Below are positions 5,365-7,669 of a stretch of DNA of 64,000 nucleotides, piece after piece; within the stretch, counting starts at the first letter, position 1, and every line of letters begins with the position of its first letter. The stretch is taken from positions 106,836 to 170,835 of IMG/VR virus record IMGVR_UViG_3300001336_000001. One strand, written 5' to 3'. A program made the position numbers and the translations under genes. The notes below the pieces were generated by a model, which was not told the DNA's origin, did not search any database, and worked only from the letters and a program-made list of their open reading frames with translations. Source of the stretch: a virus. Lineage: Duplodnaviria > Heunggongvirae > Uroviricota > Caudoviricetes.

Positions 5365-5676
5365 TTAATCAAGTTCTACTTCGTTAGCTTCGTCATTTAT
5401 CCCTTCATCAGCACCTTGACCAATGTCAAAATTCTTTTTTAAATCATCAATCATGTTGTAGATTTTAGTCATATCTGGTTCACTTAACTGAACTGGGTTT
5501 ATACAATCGATTTTTTCCTCACCGTCTGTTGGGACAATGAATGCCATAGCATTAGCATCTCTAGCGGCGATAGTATCATTTACTGAATTTACAAAAAGAT
5601 TAGCGATATTTGGTTCGCTTAGTGTTTCACGGTTAACGTAAAAAACTAATATTAGTGGGTATTGTTTATTCTCCAT
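5365..5676 (-). CDS. Hypothetical protein
   Basis: 103-aa ORF with acidic C-terminus. Confidence 0.75.
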   Translation of the reverse strand: MENKQYPLILVFYVNRETLSEPNIANLFVNSVNDTIAARDANAMAFIVPTDGEEKIDCINPVQLSEPDMTKIYNMIDDLKKNFDIGQGADEGINDEANEVELD

Positions 5677-5678
5677 GT

Positions 5679-5891
5679 TTATTGATTTAAGTATGTAGTA
5701 TGATTTACTCTTATTATATTTTCAATCTTGAATTCGTCTTTAGTTGTCATCACAACACTATCTAGGTTATTGCTTTTAACTAATTCACATTTAATAGGTC
5801 TACCAGTTATGTCCATAACATAAAATAGAAACATTTGTGTTTCTGGGTTAATTTCTTTGATTACTATATCCATATTTTTTATTTTAAACAA
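5679..5891 (-). CDS. Hypothetical protein
   Basis: 70-aa ORF in tandem with 5365..5676. Confidence 0.6.
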   Translation of the reverse strand: MFKIKNMDIVIKEINPETQMFLFYVMDITGRPIKCELVKSNNLDSVVMTTKDEFKIENIIRVNHTTYLNQ

Positions 5892-5926
5892 AAATACACA
5901 TTTTAACTATAACAGTAAATAGTTAT

Positions 5927-5960
5927 CAAAAAAAAAACCGAACATTTCTGCTCGGTTTTG
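5927..5960 (-). terminator. Intrinsic terminator closing the DUF2828 + RNA unit
   Basis: Minus strand AAAACCGAGC-AGAAAT-GTTCGGTTTT followed by a long U tract. Confidence 0.8.
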
Positions 5961-5971
5961 GTTGTCTCTAT

Positions 5972-6130
5972 CAGAATACTGGGGCTATAAACCTAACTCT
6001 GTTCGGTTTTGTTAACTTTATATTTTAAACCGAGTCACCAACGGTCTGGTTAATCAGACTATTTTGGTAGTCTGACTAACTCTACTTTAATTATTAATTG
6101 TTTTTGATAATAATTGCAGTATGTATTCTT
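5972..6130 (-). ncRNA. Putative structured ncRNA (Y-RNA-like candidate) downstream of DUF2828 gene
   Basis: Closing bulged helix GAAUAC(AUAC)UG / CAGUAUUC enclosing hairpins AATTATTA/TAATAATT, 13-bp GTTAGTCAGACTA/TAGTCTGATTAAC and TCGGTTT/AAACCGA; no plausible ORF. Confidence 0.6.
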
Positions 6131-6144
6131 TAAGAGTTATTTAA

Positions 6145-7575
6145 TTATACTGTTACAGATTCATATCTTTCAGTGTTAACAATTTCCAACATCATCGAAA
6201 TTGGACTTAAATCTTTACCCGATAAAAGGTTGGTTAATAAACTAGGTGAGAACCCACTAACCAATGCAGCACCATCATCGTTAAATTTAACTGGGAAATT
6301 GTCATTTCTGGATTGTATATTCCAGTAGACAATCTTAGGCATTTTGTAACCAGCATCAGCATATTTAGATTCGAAAATCTCTTGCGCAGTTTTATTCCAG
6401 TTACCTCTGGTACCTTGGTTGAATTCCATATCTGATAAAATCAGAATCATTGATGGCATTTCACTTTCTGGAACATTATTTCTAACTGCTGACTCAAGTA
6501 TTGTTGTGAATACTCTTTCAATGTTTGTACTCATATCCCAGTCAGCTCTAGCTAATTGTGAGAATCTTTCAGATAATGAACCTTTAAGTACTTGTAATTG
6601 TGGTCTATCTGAGAAAGTCATGAAGGTATCTTTGAAAGCACCTTCATTTCTTTCTGAAATGTATAACCCTAATGATATTGCAACATCCAAACACGTCACA
6701 TTTGGATTATTTCCTGCCGCACAACCCATGGACCCAGATACGTCAACTACTGGTAAGAATTGTTCATTATTGTTTTCCAAAAAGTTTGGAAGTGCGTTCC
6801 ATTGTGCATCTGCACCACTAGAACTACCGTATCTTAAATTCTTTACGATATCGTAAGGATATACAGCACCAGCATTGATTTTAACATCACCATTCTTTAC
6901 AGATTCAATGAATGTTGTAAATCTAGCACCATCTCTCTTACCGAACGCTCTCATGTAATCTGACATCGCTCTAGATGGTACGTGTGAATAGTTAATCTTA
7001 CCAAACTCGTTAGCACACATTAATTGTTCAACAGTGTTTGACAATTCAGCTAACATTTTTCTGTAAGCGCTAGGAGTTAACCCTAAGTACTTTCTCAAAG
7101 CTGAAGCTTGTCTTTTCTTTTCTCTGTTGTTAACATTTGGTCTTGGCATCCATTTAGCTGCTAATTTATTACCACTTTTAAGTGCGTCACTAATTAAACC
7201 TAAAGCTTCACTTTCTAATGGTGTGCCAACAAATGTTAATAAATCATCCCATCTACCAAATTCTGAGATTAACGATAGGTTTTTTCTCATAGATTCAGTT
7301 CGGTTATTGGCTAAATATTTAGCTACTGTTCTAAAAATACTTCGTTCACCAGCACCACCTCTAACATCACGTGACCAGAATAAGATTTTCATCGCAACTA
7401 ACGCATCCTCTTCGTAAGCTTTAACAAACGTATTGATTAATCTATCCTCATCTTGACCCCTCATAGCCCCAATTTGAAAGAATAAGTTAACACAATCGTT
7501 CATTGACGATGAATTAGTAACCATACCATTTTCGGTTGTTGTGTTCTTAGTTTGTAAAGCTTCTACTAGTCTCAT
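6145..7575 (-). CDS. DUF2828-family protein (TROVE/Ro60-related helical domain + vWA domain)
   Basis: TTTENG N-terminus, ILFWSRDVRGGAGER, FGRWDDL, AAKWMPR, AGAVYPYD, MIDAS motif VVDVSGSM, ILSDMEF, LVSGFSP. Confidence 0.85.
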   Translation of the reverse strand: MRLVEALQTKNTTTENGMVTNSSSMNDCVNLFFQIGAMRGQDEDRLINTFVKAYEEDALVAMKILFWSRDVRGGAGERSIFRTVAKYLANNRTESMRKNLSLISEFGRWDDLLTFVGTPLESEALGLISDALKSGNKLAAKWMPRPNVNNREKKRQASALRKYLGLTPSAYRKMLAELSNTVEQLMCANEFGKINYSHVPSRAMSDYMRAFGKRDGARFTTFIESVKNGDVKINAGAVYPYDIVKNLRYGSSSGADAQWNALPNFLENNNEQFLPVVDVSGSMGCAAGNNPNVTCLDVAISLGLYISERNEGAFKDTFMTFSDRPQLQVLKGSLSERFSQLARADWDMSTNIERVFTTILESAVRNNVPESEMPSMILILSDMEFNQGTRGNWNKTAQEIFESKYADAGYKMPKIVYWNIQSRNDNFPVKFNDDGAALVSGFSPSLLTNLLSGKDLSPISMMLEIVNTERYESVTV

Positions 7576-7612
7576 AATAATTAAAGTTTATGTGTTTTAT
7601 TAATTTGAATTG

Positions 7613-7643
7613 CAATTATATGCATATTTTTTAATATCGTCAA
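7613..7643 (-). promoter_or_regulatory. Promoter TTGACG-N17-TATAAT(TG), readable as both sigma70 and Bacteroidota type
   Basis: Minus strand TTGACG ATATTAAAAAATATGCA TATAATTG upstream of the DUF2828 gene. Confidence 0.75.
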
Positions 7644-7669
7644 GTTTTTTTTGAAAAAAATAGTTTTTT

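Follow-up and report, generated by a model that had tools for sequence, protein, structure and literature searches.

A compact minus-strand transcription unit in a phage genome raises the question of whether its gene, and the structured RNA that follows it, form a ribonucleoprotein of the kind made by Ro60 and Y RNA. The function of Ro60/Y-RNA particles, which are known from animals, from some bacteria and from a small number of phages, is still debated; the closing stem of a Y RNA is the Ro60-binding module, the Y RNA lies on the outer surface of the protein, and the ends of misfolded RNA enter its central hole. The unit occupies positions 5,927 to 7,643 of the window, i.e. the 64,000-nt stretch analysed here (positions 106,836 to 170,835 of IMG/VR virus record IMGVR_UViG_3300001336_000001), which is part of a 287,855-bp phage genome with terminal repeats. 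An initial annotation, made from the sequence alone, had read the unit as a divergent Ro60/Y-RNA-like system. This reading is supported by the fold of the protein and by the anatomy of the RNA together with comparative evidence, and we consider it likely that the unit encodes a phage ribonucleoprotein of the Ro60/Y-RNA kind, in which the RNA is probably the partner of the Ro60-like protein.

The unit runs on the minus strand in the order promoter, gene, RNA and terminator. The sigma-70-type promoter TTGACG-17-TATAAT (7615-7643), which follows the A-tract AAAAACTTGAC, matches the consensus at 11/12 positions and is unique within the window, where 0.01 such sites are expected. The gene (6145-7575) encodes 476 aa and ends in TAA; 13 nt past this stop, at 6131, starts a 161-nt non-coding RNA (5971-6131, minus strand) composed of AAAG, a closing stem strand, AUAC, UGCAA, a variable body, the second closing stem strand and GA. 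No open reading frame (ORF) of at least 40 aa was found between 5892 and 6144. An intrinsic terminator (5928-5959) with an 11-pair stem (5959-5934) and a T run ends the common transcription unit, and its stem is kept with compensatory changes in nine relatives (alignment columns 186-211). Thus, the strong promoter, the 476-aa DUF2828 gene, the non-coding stretch of about 160 nt and the terminator proposed in the initial annotation are all borne out. A separate promoter for the RNA (CTGAAA-18-TATAAT, 6173-6144) was considered and rejected, as relatives have not conserved it. In a megablast search of the phage collection the locus had no match, and metatranscriptome run X20 contained contigs of diverged relatives only, which cover parts of the coding region and none of the RNA.

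The N-terminal part of the protein, a ring of helical repeats, corresponds to Pfam DUF2828 (E 1.7e-35; 123.1 bits with a cut-off of 29) and the C-terminal vWA part to Pfam DUF7788 (E 7e-49; 166.4 bits with a cut-off of 27.1); among PHROGs, the protein matches phrog_850, annotated as 'RNA-binding protein' (E 1.5e-156). A complete metal-ion-dependent adhesion site (MIDAS) motif is present (D278-x-S280-x-S282, T350 and D382; sequence DVSGSM) and is invariant across 22 homologues. An AlphaFold model of the 476-aa protein was built from these 22 homologues (predicted local distance difference test score 77.6; residues 1-40 poorly predicted). In a Foldseek search with this model, the Ro60 of Thermus phage phiLo ranked first (9kop, 9l5y; E 1.7e-9, template modelling score 0.60), followed by Deinococcus radiodurans Rsr, Xenopus Ro and human Ro60, each over approximately 500 aligned columns. 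Similarly, VIA-align superimposed phiLo Ro60 with Z 18.2 over 403 residues (root mean square deviation 4.4 Å), human and Xenopus Ro60 with Z 14.2-14.5, and Deinococcus Rsr with Z 13.7. All of the ten best structural matches are Ro60 entries, which span residues ~20-473 (Z 12.7-18.2, 379-407 residues aligned), while the best matches outside Ro60 cover the vWA domain only, with Z of approximately 10. The expectation that a model of the protein would resemble the Ro60 ring was therefore confirmed over nearly the full length. By contrast with the structural searches, a phmmer search of the protein against PDB sequences returned nothing meaningful and did not reach Ro60. In total, we conclude from the model that the 476-aa protein is a Ro60-shaped ring with a vWA domain that belongs to a separate sequence family, its kinship with Ro60 lying at the level of the fold.

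Homologues of the protein are present in 710 of 50,697 phage records, and the hosts of these phages include Escherichia, Mycobacterium, Salmonella, Vibrio, Listeria, Staphylococcus and Campylobacter. Moreover, relatives are encoded in at least 517 IMG/VR stretches, homologues make up essentially all of the 8000 candidates scored in a large protein collection, and the ESM Atlas matches are viral DUF2828 clusters only. Longer homologues, either fused or eukaryotic, did not turn up in a search that is weak evidence by the tool's own statement. One homologue (L019:3001-4410) has 13 in-frame stops and is a pseudogene or carries assembly errors, yet the RNA downstream of it is intact; an altered genetic code was rejected as the explanation in favour of frameshifts. 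In a close relative, the gene next door (L123:1-150) encodes a Por_Secre_tail (type IX secretion) domain, which hints that phages of this group may infect Bacteroidota.

The same RNA ends recur 3' of homologues that were picked by protein similarity alone. Members of the resulting family, here called handle RNAs, have in common AAG, a 7-bp closing stem, 4 nt ending in C, CWGCAA, a body, the 3' stem strand and a G (mostly UG), and contain 40-350 variable nt between WGCAA and the 3' stem strand. Because the first list of candidates demanded perfect pairing, a non-circular test was made on 62 non-redundant loci. WGCAA lies within 170 nt of the stop in 47 of these, and in 34 of the 47 the 7-mer located 4 nt upstream of WGCAA is matched, within 400 nt, by a perfect complement with a G directly after it; the corresponding rates were 13.4% with helices taken from other loci and 7.1% with shuffled helices. 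From a MAFFT alignment of 21 large members, RNAalifold predicted exactly the closing helix and no other, with compensatory changes at 6 of its 7 pairs. A covariance model built from 23 short members (54-68 nt) gave 36 matches at E<=0.01 when both strands of 392 kb were searched; all 36 are on the strand of the gene and downstream of it, and 13 of them are non-training sequences. The mini-RNA model R1 was designed for members of 60 nt, and for this reason its match to the window RNA (23.3 bits) is confined to the 5' part. We conclude that the covariation sought in the 3' flanks of DUF2828 homologues is present and, on this comparative evidence, that the window RNA belongs to a covarying, strand-specific RNA family that accompanies the gene family in dozens of phage contigs.

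The loci could alternatively resemble each other because the sequence is repetitive or mobile, or because stem-loops arise by chance in AT-rich DNA between genes, in either case with no function as RNA. The genome is indeed AT-rich, and loose pattern scans give many chance matches. However, the helix varies in sequence while its pairing is kept, with 17 different stem sequences encountered among the loci; the internal helices covary as well; invariant single-stranded motifs stand beside the helix; the strand bias is strict; and the 161-nt core folds at -42.1 kcal/mol with a z of -6.5 against 200 shuffles (-58.4 kcal/mol and z -8.2 with the terminator included). We therefore regard an origin in repeats or chance as very improbable.

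The closing stem of the window RNA pairs AGAAUAC (6123-6129) with GUAUUCU (5973-5979), and the latter is followed by the invariant G5972 (alignment column 224, G in 21/21). Next to the 5' strand stand AUAC (6122-6119), a 4-nt spacer that ends in an invariant C, and UGCAA (6118-6114), which is the family motif WGCAA; together (6114-6122), they are the presumed protein-contact sequence. In the 21 large RNAs, columns 15 and 17-20 (the C of the spacer and GCAA) are invariant, as are the A before the stem, the C two nt before the 3' strand and the G after the 3' strand, and in the 23 short RNAs C-A-G-C-A-A is invariant. These flanking positions were not part of any selection based on pairing. The closing helix of the initial annotation, AGAAUAC/GUAUUCU with the bulged AUAC, thus stands, while its UG/CA extension past the bulge is not supported: the G-C pair joins two invariant columns and is uninformative, and the U-A pairs in only 10/21 relatives. 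A further helix between CUGC (6119-6116) and GUAG (6085-6082) is predicted in the close subfamily, where one change is compensatory and another disruptive; the short RNAs lack it. Outside the AAAG/CUGA ends, an extra 4-bp helix GUGU/ACAC is present in L119-L123 and L021-L023 (A4 columns 2-5/174-177) and is weak in the window itself (UCUU/AUAG); it could be a precursor-processing stem.

For the body, the window RNA was aligned with those of nine close relatives whose proteins are 75-86% identical. P1 (6049-6080), a 13-bp hairpin, differs in sequence and length among these relatives with pairing kept, and 5 of 6 pairs examined (columns 63-68/82-87) show compensatory changes. P2 (6027-6047), AGACCG/CGGUUU with the 9-nt loop UUGGUGACU, is paired in 44/45 cells and changes from C-G to U-A in L123, with a U-G intermediate in L120. 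The P2 loop (GUGAC, 6038-6034) is predicted to pair with the downstream GUUAAC (6011-6016) to form pseudoknot PK1, for which 41/45 cells are paired and the variants are GUUAC:GUAAC in most relatives, ACCAC:GUGGU in L022 and UCAC:GUGA in L121. A 3' module (5982-6008) would form a second pseudoknot: its hairpin P3 (GAG 5999-5997 with CCC 5984-5982) occurs with the stems GGG/CCC, GAG/CUC and AGG/CCU, the window having one A-C mismatch, and GGUU in the P3 loop (5993-5990) pairs with the upstream AACC (6008-6005), a pairing that reads CUUC:GAAG, CCUC:GAGG, AUUC:GAAU or AGCU:GGCU elsewhere. A local hairpin GGCU/AGCC was considered in place of the P3 pseudoknot; it pairs in 38/45 cells, but is broken in L120 and impossible in other subfamilies. 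Altogether, these compensatory changes indicate that the body of the RNA is pseudoknotted.

Among the three enclosed hairpins of the initial annotation, the 13-bp stem is P1, whereas relatives do not conserve the AU-rich hairpin that comes first in the single-sequence fold. The 'T-loop-like' GGUUUAUAGCC noted at the same time sits inside the conserved hairpin P3, the loop of which begins with UUCGA or UUAGA in other subfamilies. ARAGORN and the Rfam tRNA model gave no tRNA match in the 161-nt RNA, and ARAGORN gave none in the whole window. A true T-arm-like GGUUCAAAUC hairpin is found in relatives L081 and L090, where it is borne by the first unit of a tandem array. Such arrays of three handle RNAs behind the gene occur at L081:3427-3781 and L090:3426-3779 and in L093, L099 and L085, with a promoter-like TTGACT...TATA spacer between units 1 and 2; in L081, three ordinary tRNA genes follow the array. 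In another locus (L072:3963-4017), a handle-RNA 3' end with its terminator gives a near-threshold Rfam match to cyanobacterial NsiR1 (37.7 bits; gathering score 39) that is probably driven by the terminator.

The phage carries at least four handle RNAs, one by the gene and three in a tRNA island approximately 40 kb away and outside the window (minus strand, G000:C1:71769-72289, corresponding to L101:1275-1801), among tRNA-Gln and tRNA-Met. The largest of the three is 222 nt long (G000:C1:72289-72068), has a body like those of L071 and L100 and matches no Rfam family; the short ones of 54 nt (G000:C1:72046-71993) and 58 nt (G000:C1:71826-71769) score 46.3 and 49.9 bits, respectively, with the covariance model. 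Of the two short RNAs, one begins immediately behind tRNA-Met and the other stops 8 nt short of tRNA-Gln; therefore, tRNA processing would release them near their AAAG and CUG ends. The Ro60-like gene and the island also have a promoter class in common, an A-tract followed by CTTG(A/C)N, 17 nt and TAnnnT. Promoters of this A-tract/CTTGNN type, which in the window spans 7615-7649, occur only approximately seven times genome-wide, including minus-strand sites at genome positions 71722, 72490, 75819, 96539 and 114450, and suggest that the gene and the island are co-regulated.

Named phages show the same association. KVP40 has the protein as well as a 253-nt member beside tRNA-Ser and a short member 7 kb upstream of the gene; Cronobacter phage S13 has the protein and handle RNAs, one 750 nt downstream of the gene and four 8-10 kb upstream; and Bas63 has the protein and three handle RNAs in the tRNA array directly after bas63_0130. 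In S13, two overlong annotated 'tRNA' genes lie just past the Ro60-like gene (L108:5360-5602, i.e. NC_028773.1 132703-132945). They are 121 and 113 nt long, are annotated as tRNA-Ser and tRNA-OTHER, share an insert of approximately 40 nt in the anticodon region (ACGCAAACUGAYAAGUUUGUAUUCAGCA) and are followed by a 141-nt handle RNA.

Several observations weigh against reading the unit as a Ro60/Y-RNA-type particle. On the protein side, Pfam TROVE (PF05731) has no match in the 476-aa protein at E<=1, and the best that a profile of 22 sequences achieves with the TROVE protein of phiLo is E 0.023, along a stretch of 43 residues in the MIDAS region. On the RNA side, the Rfam models Y_RNA (RF00019) and YrlA (RF02553) have no match at E<=10 over 5600-6400 and none in ten related loci, as expected from the statement in the initial annotation that the canonical Y-RNA sequence is lacking; the only Rfam matches at E<=10 to the RNA region are terminator-driven chance matches (Leu_leader, SdsR). 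The handle motif is CWGCAA after a 4-nt spacer instead of the CGAA or GNCGAA of Y RNAs, and the CCGAAC present in the window RNA has no G-N before it and is not conserved in the nine close relatives. Moreover, in a phage whose protein is 99% identical, the CUGCAA motif and the whole 125-nt body are swapped for 21 nt (L124:2117-2310 and L125:2117-2310, compared with 5997-6123 of the window). The 21 nt are an inverted copy of the adjoining 3' segment, and the swap leaves a perfect, plain 25-bp hairpin before the terminator; the variant is found in a Logan assembly, an NCBI metagenome assembly (at least two different samples) and contigs of run X2. Thus, the gene-proximal RNA is dispensable, at least when other copies exist. 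Finally, just one of the four copies in this genome is by the gene, the other three being in the tRNA island, and linkage to tRNA arrays remains a rival reading of the association between RNA and protein.

According to this rival, the handle RNAs are a family of tRNA arrays whose partner is a host factor or another phage protein, and the adjacency to DUF2828 arises from shared early or tRNA-type expression. Besides the three copies in this genome, those of Bas63, KVP40 and S13 are in or beside tRNA clusters, and a look-alike from Dictyostelium, DdR-21 (a Class I RNA), is bound directly by the RNA recognition motif (RRM) protein Rnp1A/CIBP (PMC7919456). However, in more than 30 metagenomic loci the RNA stands directly behind the DUF2828 gene, and in those with gene lists the called neighbours are protein genes only (the loci were not scanned for tRNA genes). 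The restriction of all covariance-model matches to the strand of the gene also argues against a tie to tRNA arrays alone, as does the tRNA-rich, T5-like phage Bas27, which in the one genome examined has neither the protein nor a handle RNA. Moreover, structured RNAs encoded beside the gene are known partners of Ro60-family proteins (PMC4201824). Altogether, we consider it unlikely that the tRNA arrays account for the association.

The loss variant is also relevant to the idea that the element is a cis-acting 3' untranslated region (UTR) of the DUF2828 mRNA, i.e. a stabiliser, a processing site or an autoregulatory operator, and not a separate trans-acting RNA. In the variant, the closing stem persists as part of a long hairpin ahead of the terminator, and the window element lies immediately past the stop, lacks a conserved promoter of its own and uses the same terminator as the gene. 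By contrast, in this genome members of the family are found by themselves among tRNA genes, 40 kb away from the gene; those of KVP40 and S13 lie 3-10 kb upstream of the gene; and in some loci two or three units stand in tandem, with promoter-like spacers. Because stand-alone, upstream and tandem copies are not expected of a purely cis-acting element, we find this explanation quite improbable, somewhat more so than the linkage to tRNA arrays.

If the unit indeed encodes a Ro60-type particle, the protein would bind at the shared handle, just as Ro60 binds a Y RNA at its closing stem, and the body, consisting of P1, P2 with its loop pseudoknot and the pseudoknotted P3, would offer another surface, by which a host RNA enzyme is tethered, gated or decoyed. 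The RNA would be made by read-through from the sigma-70-type promoter of the gene, ended by the terminator and presumably trimmed to its AAAG and CUGA ends. We infer that the protein binds the RNA, that the RNA is processed to discrete ends and that the unit is expressed early. Its role would most likely be counter-defence or control of host RNA decay, a suggestion made because of the analogy with gp130 of Bas63 and with the Ro60-Yrl-PNPase assembly of phiLo. Past the terminator of the unit, by 20-40 nt, many relatives (L004, L005, L007, L013, L037, L041) have a conserved motif, (G)TTTACACTTT, that may be a phage-specific promoter for the next gene; its counterpart in the window is the weaker TATTTACTGTT, at about 5913-5923.

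Compared with known systems, the unit would be a ribonucleoprotein of the Ro60 type whose protein comes from another sequence family and whose RNA family we found described in no publication: no paper was found that defines the handle RNAs, and a text search for UUACAGCAA/TTACAGCAA gave no relevant paper. In bacteria and mycobacteriophages, Ro60 (TROVE) genes come with Y RNAs of the YrlA/YrlB type, which carry GNCGAA as a motif and have a tRNA-like domain (Chen et al. 2014, PMC4201824), and the Ro60 of Thermus phage phiLo binds two phage Y-like RNAs (Yrl1/Yrl2, with a CGAA motif) and recruits the host polynucleotide phosphorylase (PNPase; PMC12135203). The unit described here resembles these systems in its ring-shaped protein of helical repeats with a vWA/MIDAS domain, for which phiLo Ro60 is the best structural match; in having one or more structured RNAs beside the gene and on the same strand, with the RNA ends paired in a conserved stem by an unpaired motif; in the variable, modular body of the RNA; and in the presence of several RNAs per genome. 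It differs in that the protein is DUF2828/DUF7788 and not TROVE, so that the relation lies in the fold only, and in that the body is predicted to be pseudoknotted, with no tRNA recognised in it by ARAGORN or the Rfam tRNA model. On this view, a second and much commoner phage branch of the Ro60/Y-RNA system would gain a defined family of RNA partners with a simple, mutable handle, which would also account for many of the 'structured spacers' and unusual tRNA-like genes that phage tRNA islands contain.

Among homologues, the closest point of contact with function is gp130 of Bas63 (Escherichia phage JohannRWettstein), which is 44% identical to the window protein (E 6e-112). Deletion of Bas63 g130 is reported to cripple plaquing on a host with the ppl defence, and complementation to restore it (PhageMaP preprint, PMC11482910); the preprint noted the Ro60-like fold of gp130 and guessed that the nearby tRNA genes might be Y RNAs. 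This phenotype is the sole experimental pointer to a function of the family and, through the homology, may bear on the window protein. The two systems have the protein family in common, and in Bas63 the gene stands directly before the tRNA array whose spacers hold the handle RNAs. They differ in that the preprint left the nearby RNAs undefined, that the anti-ppl phenotype belongs to a Felix O1-type phage and that in the window phage one RNA is fused to the transcription unit of the gene. With the handle RNAs in hand, the counter-defence phenotype of gp130 would become mechanistically testable.

Finally, the conserved handle closely resembles the Class I RNAs of Dictyostelium and other dictyostelid social amoebae, which to our knowledge have been unexplained since 2004. 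Class I RNAs start with AAG, end with CUGU, have a 6-bp covarying stem and an 11-nt motif, and were reported to be unique to Dictyostelia (Kjellin et al. 2021, PMC7919456). The short phage members, including two in this genome, have an AAG start, a covarying stem of 6-7 bp, a CCUUACAGCAA-type motif and a CUGU end, and the counterparts in the window RNA are AAAG, the 7-bp stem, AUACUGCAA and CUGA. Four short members in different loci and one in this genome match the Rfam model RF01414 with 25-30.7 bits (best related locus 30.7, best in this genome 25), all below its gathering score of 41.5; the 161-nt RNA of the window has no match to this model. The RF01414 alignment runs through a stem, CUUACAGCAA, an A/U-rich interior, the stem complement and CUG. 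In common are thus the AAG start, a short stem with compensatory changes, the adjacent unpaired (C)CUUACAGCAA, a variable A/U-rich interior and the CUG(U) end, and short phage members carry an identical CUUACAGCAA. Class I RNAs are 42-65 nt long and the short phage members 54-68 nt, whereas the window RNA has 161 nt; they are eukaryotic and have their own promoter with a Dictyostelium upstream sequence element (DUSE), whereas the window RNA is co-transcribed from a bacterial-type promoter; and their known direct binder is an RRM protein. A pull-down with DdR-21 yielded Rnp1A/CIBP, GuaB, NdkC and DDB_G0281243, a protein of unknown function (bioRxiv 10.1101/2020.04.05.026054), and DDB_G0281243 could be a candidate DUF2828-type partner of Class I RNAs. 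In total, the likeness is a strong lead and not demonstrated homology. That the phage handle RNAs and Class I RNAs are of the same kind, both serving as partners of Ro60-like proteins of the DUF2828 type, which Pfam lists in eukaryotes as well, is a tentative proposal that we rate as more doubtful than the ribonucleoprotein itself and hold to be possible rather than probable. If true, Class I RNAs would not be an amoeba-only invention tied to multicellularity, and would instead correspond to Y RNAs in a second branch of the Ro60 superfamily, one that has been overlooked and is common to phages and eukaryotes; the phage system would in this way offer a concrete candidate protein class for these orphan RNAs.

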